From Escherichia phage C6: 64,000 nucleotides of DNA. This document shows, in pieces, positions 30,668 through 62,518 of this stretch. The position numbers were made by a program, and so were the translations under genes. The stretch is from the sequence record MW679410.1; one strand, given 5' to 3'. Position 1 is the first letter of the stretch. Every line of letters starts with the position of its first letter. A model generated the notes under the pieces. That model was not told the DNA's origin, ran no database searches, and saw only the letters and a list, made by a program, of their open reading frames with translations.

Positions 30668-30668
<1 letters not shown>
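30471..30668 (-). CDS. hypothetical protein
   Basis: Track ORF 30471..30698; internal ATG (MNNIEKIF...) overlaps pseT stop (TAATG). Confidence 0.4.
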
Positions 30669-31868
<1,200 letters not shown>

Positions 31869-32809: not shown

Positions 32810-33159
32810 TCTGTAATGCTCCTGAAGTCTTCTGTAAAGGAATCGAAGGACTTGTTGATTTGTTTTTCGACCAGTCCTGGCTTACTTGCCACCACGTGCG
32901 CCTTCTTCGAATCTTTACGGAGCTTTTCATTTTCTACCTTAATTTTATCCATTCGGGCATTCATTTCAGTAGTACGGAATTCAATATCCGAGTATTGACC
33001 ACGAAGGTCCTCTACAGCTTCAGCGTTCTGTTTGGCTGTTTGCTGGGTAGTTTTCAGTTCTTCAGTAAGGGTATCAATACGACTTGATTGATACGAAATA
33101 AAACCGTAAGCACCTACTGCAATGGCTCCAGCTAAAAGGTAAATACTTAATTTAGACAT
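32806..33159 (-). CDS. pseT.3: inner-membrane spanin (Rz-like)
   Basis: 117 aa; N-terminal TM helix then coiled-coil-like charged region. Confidence 0.7.
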   Translation of the reverse strand: MSKLSIYLLAGAIAVGAYGFISYQSSRIDTLTEELKTTQQTAKQNAEAVEDLRGQYSDIEFRTTEMNARMDKIKVENEKLRKDSKKAHVVASKPGLVEKQINKSFDSFTEDFRSITE

Positions 33160-33647
33160 TTGGTAATAATCTCGATGATGTCATCACGTGACAGGGAATT
33201 AATAAGAACCGTTTTAGGATTTTCGCACTGAATTTTGTACGTTTCGAACATAAAACACAATTCTTCAGCGGTATGGTAAGGACTTGAAATGCCGAGGCGA
33301 TTAAACTTGTCGCTTAATGGGTCGCAAATCAAATAGAAAGTGATGCCTGAGATTTTAACATTAGGTTGGCTAATATTAATGAACACCTCGGCATCGTACT
33401 TGGAAAGGTTGTTTTGGAGAAACTCAACCATAGAGTTAACAGCTTCTGGCATGGCTTCACGCTTTTCTTCTGCATAACGGGTAGAGTATTCTTTTTGCTT
33501 GATTTTCTTTTTAGCATTTTTAGCTAAAGTAACACGAAGATCGGTCAGGTAACCTACTGCACGAGAACCTTTAAAAACTTGGATACCGTCAGTAGAGTCA
33601 CCAAAAGCCTTAACAACCATTTCGTTAGTAATCATTTGCATATTCAT
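33147..33647 (-). CDS. Alc-like protein (host transcription unfolding/termination factor), assigned by position and size
   Basis: 166 aa, lies immediately before rnlA in transcription order like T4 alc; sequence identity not verified. Confidence 0.4.
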   Translation of the reverse strand: MNMQMITNEMVVKAFGDSTDGIQVFKGSRAVGYLTDLRVTLAKNAKKKIKQKEYSTRYAEEKREAMPEAVNSMVEFLQNNLSKYDAEVFINISQPNVKISGITFYLICDPLSDKFNRLGISSPYHTAEELCFMFETYKIQCENPKTVLINSLSRDDIIEIITKCLN

Positions 33648-33673: not shown

Positions 33674-33708
33674 AGTCTATACTAACACATCATGAGGAGA
33701 TGTAAACT
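33674..33708 (-). promoter_or_regulatory. early-type promoter (GTTTAC-N17-TAGTAT) overlapping rnlA 3' end
   Basis: Motif family member upstream of ORF 33147..33647. Confidence 0.5.
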
Positions 33709-34855
33709 ACTCTACCACAATTTCTTTCAAATATTTTTCAGGGATTTGGGCTTTATGGTTTTTCAAGAACACCGAGTTAATCTGGTCTACAACCGTATCA
33801 TAATTAATACCGCCTACGTACGCCTGCATAAGAATAGAGAACAGCCCTGGGAAGTCCTTAAGGATTAACTGACCCGTAACGGCATAGTCTTTACGGTCGC
33901 GGCCCTTGAGTTGGGAATATGCTGCTTCCAACAAAGCCAATGATTGTTCTAGGTAATCTAGATGGATACGTTCAAAGGCATCGATTTTCTCGATAGCAAA
34001 GGAATCCGTACTGAACAGACCACGGAGGTCATCGGTTCCACCGGCCACTACAACTTCAAACAAACGTTCGTTATTGTTAATGGAATCTTTGGTATGGTGC
34101 AGTGCACTGTACCAGGCAGTTTTGAGTTTAAAGAACGTACCATCTTTCAGTACAAAGATGAAACCTTCAATACCCTCTTGTTTACGGATGTTTTCTACGA
34201 AATCACCTTCAGTGAGGTCATAGCTTTCAACCAAATGCTTACGCAGCGCGCCATCTTTAAACAGTTCAGCATATGGAATATATTCACCTGTTTCATTATT
34301 ACGAACGTTCAACAGGATGAGGTTTGTTTCTTGGTACGCCAGCACGATACGGTTGGTAGGTGCAACATATTCAAGGTTGCAGGTATACCCAGCTTTGGTG
34401 ATTTCTTCTAGACGTGCGGCAAAAGCCTCGTTCTCAGGGAGACGAAGGAAACGTAAAGAATCATACACCATTGATGAATGGATAGAGCCTTTAGATTTAA
34501 CAGAAAGATACTGACGGTCCATGAATGTAGAAATCAGAGAACCATCTTCCTTAGCCATTACGAGGTCGATATTTTCTGGCGACAAATCCAGACCGATAGT
34601 CATAGGGTTTTCGTCGAGGTTAAAGAACTTTTGCATAGGACGAGCAGCAATACGTACTGGACCATTCTCGTCCATTTCAAACATAATGCCTCGACACTCT
34701 AGTGCGCCGTCTTCCAACCAATCACTGTACGATGCATAGTTATAACTAAAGATGCGATAGTTGACTCCTAGCGCACTCTGAAAGTCTTTAAAGAAGAACT
34801 TAGATTTAGTCGAGTTTTTAACCAAGGCCATCAAGTTATCATATAATTCAATCAT
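33707..34855 (-). CDS. rnlA: RNA ligase 1
   Basis: 382 aa; YRIFSYNYASYSDW...LECRGIMFEMD... matches T4 Rnl1. Confidence 0.95.
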   Translation of the reverse strand: MIELYDNLMALVKNSTKSKFFFKDFQSALGVNYRIFSYNYASYSDWLEDGALECRGIMFEMDENGPVRIAARPMQKFFNLDENPMTIGLDLSPENIDLVMAKEDGSLISTFMDRQYLSVKSKGSIHSSMVYDSLRFLRLPENEAFAARLEEITKAGYTCNLEYVAPTNRIVLAYQETNLILLNVRNNETGEYIPYAELFKDGALRKHLVESYDLTEGDFVENIRKQEGIEGFIFVLKDGTFFKLKTAWYSALHHTKDSINNNERLFEVVVAGGTDDLRGLFSTDSFAIEKIDAFERIHLDYLEQSLALLEAAYSQLKGRDRKDYAVTGQLILKDFPGLFSILMQAYVGGINYDTVVDQINSVFLKNHKAQIPEKYLKEIVVE

Positions 34856-57905: not shown

Positions 57906-58121
57906 TTAGATTGATAGGTCTTTAATCTCGGCGATTAAAGCAGCTTTTCCTTCACGAAGTTTTTCCAGTTCACGACCATTAGAACCGCGAACCACTAAGG
58001 AATTTATCTCCACTTCTAACCAATTCAGTTTTTCAACTAGTTCTTTACGTTTAGCATTCATGCCAGGTTTAACTTTACCGAAACGGGTTGTAGCGTTTTG
58101 GGTATTTTTCATCTTGTTCAT
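57906..58121 (-). CDS. hypothetical protein
   Basis: Track ORF begins at GTG; ATG (MNKMKNTQ...) after GGAGA. Confidence 0.45.
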   Translation of the reverse strand: MNKMKNTQNATTRFGKVKPGMNAKRKELVEKLNWLEVEINSLVVRGSNGRELEKLREGKAALIAEIKDLSI

Positions 58122-58150
58122 TTTGTATCTCCATTTCACTCTATTGTTTT

Positions 58151-58189
58151 GATAGGTCTATAGTATCATGTTTAAAGCAGAAGTAAACA
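58151..58189 (-). promoter_or_regulatory. early-type promoter
   Basis: Same 40-nt core as the promoter at 41241..41279. Confidence 0.55.
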
Positions 58190-58207
58190 CTTTTTTTCAC
58201 TAAACCC

Positions 58208-58240
58208 AAAAAAGGAACCCGAAGGTTCCTTACTTTTTAA
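58208..58240. terminator. bidirectional hairpin A6-ggaaccCGAAggttcc-T-run
   Basis: Same hairpin as at 26098..26113. Confidence 0.55.
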
Positions 58241-58334
58241 AGTGGGCCGCTATTAAACCTATAGCTAAGCCTGTCGCCAGGCCTAGAATAACAGCAAAGA
58301 TACAGAGTAACAAGAACTCGACTCCAAGGCTCAT
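58230..58334 (-). CDS. 34-aa hydrophobic peptide, translationally coupled to gene 52
   Basis: Hand-called MSLGVEFLLLCIFAVILGLATGLAIGLIAAHFKK; ATG overlaps gene 52 TGA (ATGA), GGAGG SD. Confidence 0.45.
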   Translation of the reverse strand: MSLGVEFLLLCIFAVILGLATGLAIGLIAAHFKK

Positions 58335-59710
58335 AGAGCCTCCAAATCTTTAACATACTCAGTTACCACATCAGTGGTTTTCCAGTATTGGTGCTCTTCT
58401 TTCTTAGCCTTGGCTTCGAGGGCCAGTTTCTTGGCTTCATCGGATGTGATATGGAAAATGTTCATTGCAACCAGTTTATCGGCATATTCGCCGTAGACTT
58501 TATTACCAGCCAATTCTTCGGTTAAAACCTTACGAGTCTTACCTTGGATAACCACTACGCCATCAATAACATCTTTGATGAATGTAGCTTTAGCCAATGC
58601 CAGTTTAAAAGCTTCTTCAGTTTCGATGATTTTACCATCAATACGTTTTTGTACAAAGGTCTTACGGACCTCAACGAAATCGCGAATCAGTTCAACTGCA
58701 TCTTCGTAAACCTTAAGTTTACCTTTTTCATTAATGACGGTCAGGTTTTGTGAACGACGTTCGATTAACCCGAAGTCCTTCATGAGTTTTTCGTGTTTCT
58801 TATCTTCATCAGTAGGCAATTCGTATTCTTTACGAATCTTAACCTTGAAGCCGAAACCGTTCTCGTCACAGTCATCATCATATGTGATATACCCTTTGTC
58901 TTCCAGAGGGTCTAATACCTTAGCCACATACGTTTCACGGTCATATTTGTATGGGATTTCCGTGATATGCATTTGGGTTCGGGATGTGAACTTATACGTT
59001 CCACGAATCTCATAACTACCGGGTTCAATTTCAACAACTTCACCACGGAATTCAGGATAAGCCACTTTAGGTTTGGTTACTCGTTTTTCCTGAAGAACTT
59101 GCAATACAGCTTTCTTAACAGAATCAAAACTATGAGGAAGAATATTAGTTGCATAACCAGTTGCAATACCGGAAACGCCATTAAGAAGAACAGTAGGAAT
59201 AATAGGCAGATAAAAAGCCGGTGGCTTATGTTCGACATCCGCATGAACCGGAGCATATTCTGTGTCCTTATAAACTTTGGCAAAGTTACTTCCAATACGT
59301 GCAAAGATATAACGAGAGGCTGCAGCTTTTTGAACCAATCGAGAACCGAAGTTACCCTGACCGTCTAACAATGGATAGTTGTTGTTCCATGTGTTAGCCA
59401 TCAAAGCCCCTGCTTCCTGGGCAGAACCTTCACCATGGTGATATCCAAGGTCGGCTACGCCACCAGCAATAGAAGCTAGTTTGTGGAATTTTTCTTTATT
59501 ACCACGAGCCATATCAAGACAACGAGCAACTACAAAACGTTGTACAGGTTTAAAGCCATCAATCATATTCGGAATGGCTCGGTTTTCGACAGTATACATT
59601 GCATAAGCCAATGCTTCGTTGTCGATAATACTTTTTAAGTCACGACGAGTGAAAGAATCATCGTAAACATCTAAAGCCTGTTTAAAAAGGGTATCAATTA
59701 CATCAGCCAT
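58331..59710 (-). CDS. 52: DNA topoisomerase II medium subunit gp52
   Basis: 459 aa; GyrA-like N-terminal domain (...MYTVENRAIPNMIDGFKPVQRF...). Confidence 0.95.
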   Translation of the reverse strand: MADVIDTLFKQALDVYDDSFTRRDLKSIIDNEALAYAMYTVENRAIPNMIDGFKPVQRFVVARCLDMARGNKEKFHKLASIAGGVADLGYHHGEGSAQEAGALMANTWNNNYPLLDGQGNFGSRLVQKAAASRYIFARIGSNFAKVYKDTEYAPVHADVEHKPPAFYLPIIPTVLLNGVSGIATGYATNILPHSFDSVKKAVLQVLQEKRVTKPKVAYPEFRGEVVEIEPGSYEIRGTYKFTSRTQMHITEIPYKYDRETYVAKVLDPLEDKGYITYDDDCDENGFGFKVKIRKEYELPTDEDKKHEKLMKDFGLIERRSQNLTVINEKGKLKVYEDAVELIRDFVEVRKTFVQKRIDGKIIETEEAFKLALAKATFIKDVIDGVVVIQGKTRKVLTEELAGNKVYGEYADKLVAMNIFHITSDEAKKLALEAKAKKEEHQYWKTTDVVTEYVKDLEAL

Positions 59711-59714
59711 AATT

Positions 59715-59855
59715 TTACCATACTAGTGAATGAATAGCCATAATAACATCGGAAATAAAAAGCACAACTTGGATAAGTCCGAACATTACTCCATAATACA
59801 GTGCTACTAATAAAGCAGCAAGGGCTACAGAGTAGCCTAAGATTTTCTTAATCAT
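59715..59855 (-). CDS. 46-aa predicted membrane peptide
   Basis: Hand-called MIKKILGYSVALAALLVALYYGVMFGLIQVVLFISDVIMAIHSLVW; start overlaps upstream ORF. Confidence 0.35.
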   Translation of the reverse strand: MIKKILGYSVALAALLVALYYGVMFGLIQVVLFISDVIMAIHSLVW

Positions 59856-60009
59856 TTTTAATCATCTTAAGTAAACCGACAGAAGTAGAAAGAATCCAGC
59901 CAATAAACAGAAAACTTAAGAATACCGGACCAGGGGTCCACACGCCTAAAAAGAAGCAAACTGAACAGACAATAGCCATAATAAGTTCAATAAAAACTAG
60001 AATAACCAT
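59848..60009 (-). CDS. 53-aa predicted membrane peptide
   Basis: Hand-called MVILVFIELIMAIVCSVCFFLGVWTPGPVFLSFLFIGWILSTSVGLLKMIKND; GAGGAAA SD. Confidence 0.4.
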   Translation of the reverse strand: MVILVFIELIMAIVCSVCFFLGVWTPGPVFLSFLFIGWILSTSVGLLKMIKND

Positions 60010-60019
60010 ATTTTCCTCA

Positions 60020-60097
60020 TTAGCGTCCGAAGACGCCTTTGGTTTTAAGATTGTTACGATAGAACTGCATCACATGTTCATTATGGAAATTACTCAT
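60020..60097 (-). CDS. stp: Stp peptide
   Basis: Hand-called 25-aa [25 protein letters not shown], matching the remembered T4 Stp peptide sequence. Confidence 0.75.
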
Positions 60098-60263
60098 ACA
60101 CACCACACATTTTGCATAAACGTTCAAAACAAATAAATCCACCACCTACACACATAACGACAGCCACATTATCATTAAGAGGTAGACCTAAAGCCATAAA
60201 GGCTCCGGTCACTGTGAATAGTGCTAAAACTAATAGGTAACCCATTACAAATAGAGCTTTCAT
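60090..60263 (-). CDS. 57-aa predicted membrane protein (ac position)
   Basis: Hand-called [32 protein letters not shown]...; ATG overlaps ndd stop (TAATG). Confidence 0.4.
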
Positions 60264-60712
60264 TAGTAAGCCTGCAGAATGAATTTAAAGTTATCAGCCA
60301 ACATGCGGTTCATTTCTTCCAGTGTCTGGAGGTCGGAACTATGATTGCGAGTGAAAGCCATTGCAATTTGGCCCTTACCAAAACCAGTAGTCAGAGGTTT
60401 CATCTTAGAAGCCGGCACATAAAGAACTTCGTACACAACACCATTCACTGCCATAGTGCGAGCTGATTGAGAACGTTTCTTACGAATGTTAGCCACGATA
60501 CCATCAAGACCTTGAGCCGAACGTTGATTACCGACATAAAAACGAGCAGCTACGACACGAGAATCAGCTCCACCTTTAACAAAGAAGTAGAAGCCTGGTT
60601 GAGCAGAGATTTCTTTAGAAGGTTTACCATTTTGGTATTCACCATTCTTAACATAAGCAACAGTAGTAGCACCAGCAGACAGAACGTTACGGCGAGTCAT
60701 ATAAGTATTCAT
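60263..60712 (-). CDS. ndd: nucleoid disruption protein Ndd
   Basis: 149 aa; ...[10 protein letters not shown]...[22 protein letters not shown]...[18 protein letters not shown] matches T4 Ndd. Confidence 0.95.
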
Positions 60713-60789
60713 ATCAATTTCCTCAGTAGATTAATGTTTTGTTATCCAGTCAACGAGAACCATTATAACATGATTCTCGAGGTTGTAAA

Positions 60790-61134
60790 CTATTTTTGTA
60801 GCTGTTCCAAAATAAATCCGCTCGTATAAAAGGAAGCATTATAAACCTTGTTCAGTGGGTCCAAAGCGCGTCCGTAAGTATCACGTAGTTCTTTGATAAC
60901 GTTTTCATAACTCACGTAGTAAGCACTATGATAACCAGGGTCCATGCTCATACGGAATTTGATGAATCGATAAAAACCTGTATCCGGGTCTTGAACGAAA
61001 ACGAAATCAGCACTCGTCATAATTTTTGAATCTACGCCAGGAATCATACTTTGATTGAATGCCACCGATGCATCCTGAAGGCTGAGTTGTTTAAAGAACA
61101 TTACCTTAGCATTACCAAAAAAGATTTTAGACAT
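60790..61134 (-). CDS. hypothetical protein (ndd.x position)
   Basis: Track ORF 60790..61158; probable start MSKIFFGN... Confidence 0.45.
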   Translation of the reverse strand: MSKIFFGNAKVMFFKQLSLQDASVAFNQSMIPGVDSKIMTSADFVFVQDPDTGFYRFIKFRMSMDPGYHSAYYVSYENVIKELRDTYGRALDPLNKVYNASFYTSGFILEQLQK

Positions 61135-61144
61135 GATAATTTCC

Positions 61145-61357
61145 TTATTCAGCGTCAACAGAAATAGCCATCAGTTCATCAACAGTAAGACACTGTACAC
61201 TAGGTCCTACACAAAAACGCTTAGTTGAATCATAAAGGTCTGTAGCATTAACAGGTTGTAATTCGGTCCCAACTTGTAAAGGAGAAATACGAATCAGTTG
61301 TTGACCATTATGTAATACAAAGCTCTCACCAACTGCAACATCTTTAAAAAGTTTCAT
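61145..61357 (-). CDS. hypothetical protein
   Basis: Track ORF 61145..61399; probable start MKLFKDVAV... after GAGGAAA. Confidence 0.4.
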   Translation of the reverse strand: MKLFKDVAVGESFVLHNGQQLIRISPLQVGTELQPVNATDLYDSTKRFCVGPSVQCLTVDELMAISVDAE

Positions 61358-61367
61358 AATATTTTCC

Positions 61368-61478
61368 TCAGAAGTTAAAGAATACACGTACATGGTCAAT
61401 CATAAAAACGATTGGGAAAATGCTCAATACCATTAACAACACAAACATGTTCCAAATTGCTTTAAGTAAGTTTTTCAT
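61368..61478 (-). CDS. 36-aa predicted membrane peptide
   Basis: Hand-called MKNLLKAIWNMFVLLMVLSIFPIVFMIDHVRVFFNF; GGAG SD; early promoter upstream. Confidence 0.3.
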   Translation of the reverse strand: MKNLLKAIWNMFVLLMVLSIFPIVFMIDHVRVFFNF

Positions 61479-61495
61479 AATCATCTCCATTAGTT

Positions 61496-61534
61496 GATAG
61501 GTCTATAATATCATGATTAATGGAGATGTATACT
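61496..61534 (-). promoter_or_regulatory. early-type promoter variant (GTATAC -35)
   Basis: Motif family member with TATTAT -10 and AGACCTATCAAC box. Confidence 0.45.
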
Positions 61535-61623
61535 GATTTATGCCAATTTCCACAACAATAAACTAAAACATACGCAAATCACTGGGATACAGGCCAACCA
61601 AATAAGGCACCACATTTTGCTAC

Positions 61624-61890
61624 TCAAAACACCACCTCTTTTATCTCAATCAATCCCCTGTACAATGCAGTGCGGAGGTCATAAAGAATATCTATGCCAT
61701 CAACATTATCTAGTTTACCGTCGATAAGTTTTTGTAAATCTTCCTTTGATGCGATTAAGGGACGGAGAAATTTACATTCAGAAAGAGATAACTCTGTAGT
61801 AACATCATCACCTTCACCTGACGCGTCATACATAGCGGCAACAACCATACCTGTAACTTTGTGTTTAGCGTAATATAATTTGATATCCAT
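61624..61890 (-). CDS. hypothetical protein
   Basis: Track ORF 61624..61950; start MDIKLYYAKH... after GAGGAG. Confidence 0.45.
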   Translation of the reverse strand: MDIKLYYAKHKVTGMVVAAMYDASGEGDDVTTELSLSECKFLRPLIASKEDLQKLIDGKLDNVDGIDILYDLRTALYRGLIEIKEVVF

Positions 61891-61911
61891 TTTGTTCTCC
61901 TCATTAGTTGA

Positions 61912-61950
61912 TAGGAAGATAGTAACGCCATCCATGGTATATGTAAACAC
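61912..61950 (-). promoter_or_regulatory. early-type promoter (GTTTAC-N18-TACTAT)
   Basis: Motif family member upstream of ORF 61624..61890. Confidence 0.45.
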
Positions 61951-61960
61951 TTGTTTTAAA

Positions 61961-62518
61961 TTATAAGGCGAGATACCAGCCGTTGTAATTGCTCTTACGG
62001 ACTAGCTTTTTGATGGCTTCTCTGTCACCAGAGAACTTAGGAGTGAACAGGACATCGCCTGCCTCATTTACTGAAGTGTCGAATATGATTATACAGTCTG
62101 CAACTTTATGATTCAAGAGCGGACCCAGGTTAATCCCTGTTCCATAAGGGAAGTCACCAGAGTATCCTGTAGTACAGGAAATCCACTTAGAATCTGATTG
62201 ATGGGTCTTGACCTCTACACGTAGTCCACAATACATGGGATGAGCTAAAACATCCCATGCATAGGTATAAGGGTCGTCATGGTCTTCCAGACCACTGTTA
62301 ACGTATCCTTTCAACCAATCAGCAACCATGTACTCGGCATACGTTGCAATGACACACCGAGTCAATACTTCTTTCTTATCTTGGGACGGGTCTTGGCTTA
62401 AGGAATACAATACGGTATCCTTAATCTTGACCTTCATTTCACCTGTTAAATCAGATGTCTTCAGGGTAAATGTCGGCATCGCTGCCAATCGGAGTAGTCC
62501 CGGGTTCGTCTTCACCAT
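61961..62518 (-). CDS. denB: endonuclease IV (DenB)-like protein
   Basis: Track ORF 61961..62542; internal ATG after GAGG gives 185 aa (size of T4 DenB as recalled); position between ndd and rIIB. Confidence 0.6.
   Translation of the reverse strand: MVKTNPGLLRLAAMPTFTLKTSDLTGEMKVKIKDTVLYSLSQDPSQDKKEVLTRCVIATYAEYMVADWLKGYVNSGLEDHDDPYTYAWDVLAHPMYCGLRVEVKTHQSDSKWISCTTGYSGDFPYGTGINLGPLLNHKVADCIIIFDTSVNEAGDVLFTPKFSGDREAIKKLVRKSNYNGWYLAL

Follow-up and report, generated by a model that had tools for sequence, protein, structure and literature searches.

The minus-strand DNA between ndd and gene 52 of Escherichia phage C6 is the already known ndd-52 micro-gene set of T4-like phages, which consists of Stp and three conserved small hydrophobic proteins. 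It occupies positions 59715-60263 of the window, by which we mean the whole 64,000-nucleotide stretch analysed here (record MW679410.1). Taken together, the evidence makes it very probable that this is an ordinary ndd>52 early stretch of a T-even phage (Dhakavirus), in which Stp is the T4 peptide and its companions are three conserved hydrophobic proteins. As a discovery this is of little matter; its use lies in annotation. Stp is a textbook anti-restriction peptide that is sensed by a host abortive-infection nuclease, and length cut-offs of 60 aa for open reading frames (ORFs) hide a functional gene that has been characterised by experiment.

Four consecutive ORFs of 57, 25, 53 and 46 codons fill the interval (Table 1), and the coordinates, the lengths and the Stp sequence given for them in the original prediction are exact. 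The cluster had been described there as unannotated. This proved to be only an effect of the 60-aa cut-off, as relatives annotate the set at least in part: stp is annotated in JS10 and JS98, 52.1 in JS98, JS10 and IME08, orf57 in IME341 (gp012) and orf53 in NC-G and Bp7. Several relatives leave one or more of the three hydrophobic ORFs without annotation. The genes had also been described as linked by overlaps throughout, which is correct for three junctions. The stop codon of ndd and the start codon of orf57 share one nucleotide in TAATG, and overlaps of 8 nt join orf57 to stp (ATGAGTAA) and orf53 to orf46 (ATGATTAA). The remaining two junctions are spacers, of 10 nt with a GAGGA between stp and orf53, and of 4 nt between orf46 and gene 52. 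Another ATG, which overlaps the stp stop codon in a TAATG, was considered as the start of orf53 and ruled out, as it opens a frame of only seven codons. A 41-aa Stp frame initiated at GTG (60020-60145), which appears in the ORF listing, was also ruled out, as the homologues start at the ATG at 60097.

Table 1. Features of the window that are discussed in the text, with positions counted from its first nucleotide.
Feature	Position	Strand	Description
ndd (nucleoid disruption protein)	60263-60712	-	149 aa; upstream neighbour of orf57; annotated ndd in relatives
orf57	60090-60263	-	57 aa; hydrophobic micro-protein; phrog_5941
stp	60020-60097	-	25 aa; Stp peptide; PF08133; phrog_6763
orf53	59848-60009	-	53 aa; MVILVFIELIMAIVCSVCFFLGVWTPGPVFLSFLFIGWILSTSVGLLKMIKND; hydrophobic micro-protein; phrog_9347
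orf46 (gp52.1 homologue)	59715-59855	-	46 aa; MIKKILGYSVALAALLVALYYGVMFGLIQVVLFISDVIMAIHSLVW; DUF7396 (PF24129); phrog_3595
gene 52 (topoisomerase II medium subunit)	58331-59710	-	459 aa; downstream neighbour
Sigma-70 (T4 early-type) promoter-like site	60762-60789	-	TTTACA-16-TG-TATAAT; upstream of ndd; consensus match only
RNA hairpin	60022-60037	-	GGCGUC-UUCG-GACGCU; Stp codons Gly21-Arg25 (GVFGR) and first stop base; just upstream of orf53 GAGGA
orf53 Shine-Dalgarno	60013-60017	-	GAGGA; inside the 10-nt stp/orf53 spacer; read from sequence
Intrinsic-terminator-like hairpin	58212-58231	-	AAGGAACC-TTCG-GGTTCCTT, then T run; after gene 52; consensus match only
pseT (Pnk, polynucleotide kinase/phosphatase)	30668-31576	-	PF25109 HAD_PNKP, E 4.8e-58, and AAA_33
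Alc	33147-33647	-	between Pnk and Rnl1
rnlA (gene 63, RNA ligase 1)	33707-34855	-	PF20819 T4_Rnl1_C, E 5.3e-46, and PF09511

The three hydrophobic ORFs all fall into families. Over their full lengths, orf57 matches phrog_5941 (E 1.6e-27, residues 1-57 of 57) and orf53 matches phrog_9347 (E 2.7e-25, residues 1-53 of 53). The first is 100% identical to gp012 of IME341 (YP_010094686), and the second is 96% identical to the copies in NC-G (QBP35603) and IME341. Both gp012 and QBP35603 lie at the same positions as their counterparts in the window and, like other members of the two families, are annotated only as hypothetical proteins; no family was found for orf57 or orf53 in Pfam or NCBIfam. The third ORF, orf46, shares 44 of 46 residues with T4 gp52.1 and scores 79.9 bits against PF24129, for which the cut-off is 27. 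Profile-profile comparison by hhalign, using small family alignments, found no mutual relatedness of the orf57, Ac and orf53 families, with probabilities of 0.1% for orf53 against Ac and 0.3% for orf57 against Ac. A literature search on gp52.1, DUF7396, ndd.1 and motA.1 yielded nothing relevant, and no published function for the three membrane micro-proteins was found in the literature searched, despite their conservation across T-even genera. As predicted genes, the four frames are far beyond chance, because each ORF matches a family (E 1e-20 to 1e-27) and its frame is kept in other phages.

The closest megablast match of the region is Dhakavirus IME341 (97.9%), a member of the genus of JS98/IME08/JS10-like T-even phages, and its layout, orf57-stp-orf53-52.1, is the same as that of the window. 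The Ndd proteins of the two are 100% identical, and identity to T4 Ndd is 64%. Individual genes may be present or missing, but their order was orf57 > stp > ac > orf53 > 52.1 in every one of the approximately 25 loci that were compared. T4 carries stp-ac-52.1 (ndd-stp-ac-52.1-52 with the flanking genes), JS10 carries stp-orf53-52.1 and EcS1 carries orf57-ac-orf53-52.1, while all five genes are found in JS98. The orf57 family was found in 219 phage records by tblastn. Its start lies at, or a few bases past, the end of ndd in all seven relatives that were fetched and read, which represent Tequatrovirus (Solly), Dhakavirus, Jiaodavirus, Winklervirus and Kagamiyamavirus of the Tevenvirinae, and Marfavirus. 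The orf53 family was found in 76 phage records, including phages of Enterobacter, Edwardsiella and Kosakonia. In several genera of the Tevenvirinae, and in Marfavirus, it immediately precedes 52.1, just as orf57 immediately follows ndd. In one relative from IMG/VR (L017, 155 kb), the orf53 frame extends to 70 aa (2138-2350) and 52.1 was not found as an ORF of its own, which may reflect either a fusion or a frameshift from sequencing.

Failure of the frames to be conserved in related phages had been named beforehand as a result that would speak against the original prediction. All four frames are kept, and synonymous change exceeds non-synonymous change. The dN/dS values (Nei-Gojobori), which are based on very short genes and, for the close pairs, on few substitutions, are 0.18-0.46 for orf57, 0-0.14 for stp, 0.15-0.57 for orf53 and 0.05-0.5 for orf46, with the value of 0.05 found for orf46 against T4. 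Synonymous sites are saturated between genera. Invariant motifs are also present, FER in orf57 and G-W-P in orf53. Values below 1 for every gene, together with these motifs, show that the proteins are under purifying selection.

The micro-genes move as cassettes between T-even lineages, because orf57 and stp of the window are far closer to those of Solly (Tequatrovirus) than the adjoining ndd is (dS of 0.17, 0.08 and 1.48, respectively), and because alleles have diverged within one genus: in JS98, orf57 is 74% identical and Stp is a diverged form of 26 aa. A direct remnant of such movement is found in JS98 (L002, approximately 1394-1540) and NC-G (L004, 1390-1497), where the spacer that separates ac from orf53 includes a 5' piece of 52.1 and, after it, a second stp copy of the T4 type. 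In JS98 this copy lacks a start codon, and in NC-G it is joined in frame to MIKK. The spacer is a scar left by recombination of an stp-ac-52.1 module with an stp-orf53-52.1 module. It was also observed that gp52 of the window, with 459 aa, has an N-terminus 17 residues longer (MADVIDTLFKQALDVYDDSFT..., 59660-59710, minus strand) than the 442-aa form of IME341, JS98 and T4; in the alignment, the IME341 and T4 proteins start M(E/Q)L. The long N-terminus is common to JS10, and the gene of NC-G also has a length of 1380 nt. Since two alternative 5' ends of gene 52 occur among the relatives, the 52.1/52 boundary is another mosaic junction, and the window is more than a variant of IME341.

A promoter-like site with 11 of 12 consensus matches and an extended -10 element lies upstream of ndd and was the best in a consensus scan of 58000-62500, in which no comparably strong minus-strand site was found inside the micro-ORF cluster. 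This site and the terminator-like hairpin after gene 52 are the probable start and end of an ndd>52 unit, and this stretch of the early region is probably covered by one transcript that runs from the former to the latter, with a contribution of read-through. The four micro-genes would all be translated from this mRNA. For orf57, stp and orf46, the stop/start overlaps and the weak Shine-Dalgarno contexts suggest translational coupling, while orf53 would be translated from its own GAGGA site just past the UUCG hairpin. In a side observation, a motif resembling a MotA-box middle promoter (TGCTTTA-12 nt-TATTAT, 59793-59817, minus strand) was found inside orf46/52.1. The motif is also found in JS98 and JS10, and the pattern is unmatched in T4 and Solly; its chance expectation is approximately 0.03 in a stretch of 1.2 kb. 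Such a site within 52.1 could drive gene 52.

The UUCG hairpin at the end of stp has a folding energy of -10.5 kcal/mol in a 46-nt context (z -2.2). The same structure is shared by T4, Solly, JS10, IME341 and NC-G, and JS98 has a version of it that includes a G.U pair. In the siphovirus T145P1, GVFGK is kept but the hairpin is not. The C(UUCG)G hairpin is the classic extra-stable type of T4 (PMC4371310), and the copy described here may stabilise the mRNA or set the context for translation of ac or orf53. An Rfam scan of 59000-61200 gave only a sub-threshold chance match (SNORD100, E 0.75).

The three companions of Stp had been called strongly hydrophobic, and this is borne out by GRAVY values of 1.34, 1.72 and 1.75 and by long apolar runs: residues 3-29 and 33-46 of orf57, 9-47 of orf53 with a break at WTPGP, and 5-28 and beyond of orf46. 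In single-sequence AF2 models, orf53 is a helical hairpin (2-22 and 26-52) with its turn at WTPGP, predicted with confidence (pLDDT 84.7), and orf57 has a helix at 2-25 followed by short helices at 31-40 and 47-53, predicted with moderate confidence (pLDDT 69.8). To call them single- or double-pass membrane peptides is fair as a putative topology, which fits both the hydropathy and the predicted helices. Most likely, judging from their composition, orf57, orf53 and gp52.1 become part of the inner membrane of the host at an early stage of infection. Once there, they might alter the envelope or inner-membrane complexes, affecting permeability or efflux and not nucleic-acid metabolism. Such a location and role are put forward, with low confidence, by analogy with the neighbour Ac; this analogy and the hydrophobicity of the peptides are the two grounds. 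Expression of Ac by itself makes E. coli sensitive to acriflavine, and interference of Ac with AcrAB-TolC is a hypothesis put forward in a preprint (10.1101/2025.06.30.662393).

The main rival to a role in the envelope or in transport is that the hydrophobic micro-proteins act in superinfection exclusion, as Imm and Sp do, or in lysis timing, in the manner of holins and antiholins, and leave host transport alone. This is an unlikely reading that still deserves attention. The peptides are small, would be located in the inner membrane and are encoded in a T-even early region, and Imm, Sp, RI and Ac of T4 are all small envelope proteins. Moreover, a combinatorial pattern of presence and absence is typical of accessory conflict genes. 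Against these points stands the result that no similarity to such proteins was found, Pfam and PHROGs giving families of unknown function only, and lysis genes are located elsewhere in T-even genomes. The envelope/transport role is the preferred, if tentative, reading. A more speculative proposal, which we consider doubtful, is that orf57, Ac, orf53 and 52.1, which keep one order but occur in different combinations, are a modular set of inner-membrane effectors. In the way proposed for Ac and AcrAB-TolC, each would disable a membrane machine or membrane-anchored defence of the host, with a separate target for every family, and Stp would have been inserted among them as a further anti-defence cassette. 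If this were true, the ndd-52 interval would be a compact island of micro-proteins for anti-defence and host takeover.

Stp itself is a hydrophilic, basic peptide (GRAVY -0.94). Its assignment withstood alignment: residues 1-25 are identical to those of T4 Stp at all 25 positions, with only the terminal Gln26 of T4 absent, and the peptide is the same as the product of the annotated stp of JS10. The match to Pfam PF08133 (Nuclease_act) scores 72.1 bits against a cut-off of 25 (E 2e-20, profile positions 1-25 of 26), and phrog_6763 is matched as well. The DNA of the gene is 94.3% identical to that of T4, and there are no non-synonymous changes with respect to T4, JS10 or Solly. In T4, Stp prevents restriction by acting on the type Ic complex (EcoprrI as well as EcoR124I). 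In prr+ cells this action unmasks PrrC, an anticodon nuclease that cuts tRNA-Lys, and the phage enzymes Pnk and Rnl1 repair the cut tRNA (PMC3014915, PMC12409349). Loss-of-function mutations of T4 Stp cluster at residues 4-14, within the conserved N-proximal 18 residues (PMC3014915), and residues 4-14 of the peptide in the window are all intact by this criterion. From the identity of the sequences we infer the same anti-restriction and PrrC-activating role as in T4. Stp would bind the type Ic complex of the host (EcoprrI, EcoR124I) and block DNA restriction; in a prr+ host, its action would unmask PrrC and lead to cleavage of tRNA-Lys, which Pnk would heal and Rnl1 would reseal. The window carries the genes for Pnk, Alc and Rnl1, arranged as in T4, and Pnk and Rnl1 complete a predicted Stp/PrrC counter-defence set of the T4 type.

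It might be argued that the peptide is anti-restriction only, or is inert through truncation, and does not trigger PrrC. The C-terminal Gln of T4 Stp is indeed missing, and since activation of PrrC harms the phage, selection would favour a loss of triggering. However, in T4 the loss of up to eight C-terminal codons lowers both activities only moderately (PMC3014915), therefore the missing Gln26 should be harmless. Furthermore, the residues that are required for activation of the nuclease largely coincide with those for inhibition of EcoprrI, overlapping at 4-14 (PMC3014915), and the rest of the chain is that of T4. The phage also keeps Pnk and Rnl1, counter-measures that are needed only if cleavage of the PrrC type occurs. 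A PrrC-silent Stp is accordingly improbable, and a peptide that is active in both respects is the reading preferred here.

The main side observation of this work, a minor one, is that Stp-like micro-ORFs also occur in T1-like and other siphoviruses unrelated to T4. They are 26-30 aa long and share the core SN[FW]HNEH[VI]MQ[FW]YR. Four examples were read (L012, 1483-1575; L013, 1501-1581; L014, 1501-1581; L015, 963-1046), of which three come from Drexlerviridae (Veterinaerplatzvirus T145P1, Tunavirus SA30RD and Klebsiella phage Samwise) and the fourth from Shigella phage Sf11 (Cedarrivervirus). More matches were found by tblastn, among others in phages Tls and Stevie and in Salmonella phage seszw. 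In all four examples the site is without an annotated gene, and a few other matching records list a hypothetical protein there. All three of the peptides that were tested against PF08133 pass its cut-off of 25 bits (T145P1, 52.6; Samwise, 36.1; Sf11, 35.1), and at least 80% of the Samwise peptide is covered in approximately 206 phage records. In Samwise, an annotated polynucleotide kinase follows approximately 480 nt downstream of the ORF.

The position of orf53 invites the idea that it is a diverged Ac orthologue in the slot that ac occupies in T4. It follows stp and the UUCG hairpin, begins after the same GAGGAAAATATG that precedes T4 ac, and overlaps 52.1 by 8 nt, all as ac does in T4, and its size and two-helix hydrophobic character are also similar. 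Nevertheless, this candidate was ruled out. The two proteins belong to separate PHROGs, their profiles are unrelated (the hhalign probability given above), the Ac motif SV(I/F)SQ is missing from orf53, and ac and orf53 stand side by side, in this order, in JS98, NC-G, EcS1, Gravdalen and an IMG/VR relative (L018). Orthology of orf53 and Ac is thus very improbable. None of the four ORFs is similar to Ac by sequence or profile, and the window has no ac gene. As the ac slot holds an unrelated gene here, the acriflavine phenotype of T4 should not be assumed for such phages.

Finally, the possibility that Stp is the sole real gene, and that the three hydrophobic ORFs are open by accident within an AT-rich spacer, is largely refuted and can be given almost no weight: the three are very short (46-57 codons), have no NCBIfam model and in some relatives go partly without annotation, but they match family profiles over their full length (E 1e-22 to 1e-27), remain open across genera despite the saturation of synonymous sites (dN/dS 0.05-0.57), and keep their invariant FER and G-W-P motifs and a gene order that is fixed in approximately 25 loci.

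The set is best seen against its T4 counterpart. T4 Stp (NP_049878) has the same first 25 residues and is likewise encoded between ndd and 52; the T4 gene has the same UUCG hairpin at its end, with GAGGAAAATATG after it, and Pnk and Rnl1 are encoded in both genomes. The peptide of T4 has 26 aa, whereas that of the window has 25 aa, as in JS10. In T4, stp overlaps ndd by 1 nt, while in the window it overlaps orf57 by 8 nt, as orf57, which T4 lacks, intervenes. T4 Ac (NP_049877), the membrane protein of acridine/acriflavine sensitivity, resembles orf53 in its slot, its start context and its nature as a hydrophobic two-helix peptide of approximately 50 aa, but there is no detectable homology between them and the two coexist in other phages. 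T4 gp52.1 (NP_049876) is the counterpart of orf46 and has the same length; its gene likewise overlaps the gene upstream by 8 nt and stops 4 nt short of gene 52, and the two proteins differ by two substitutions only.
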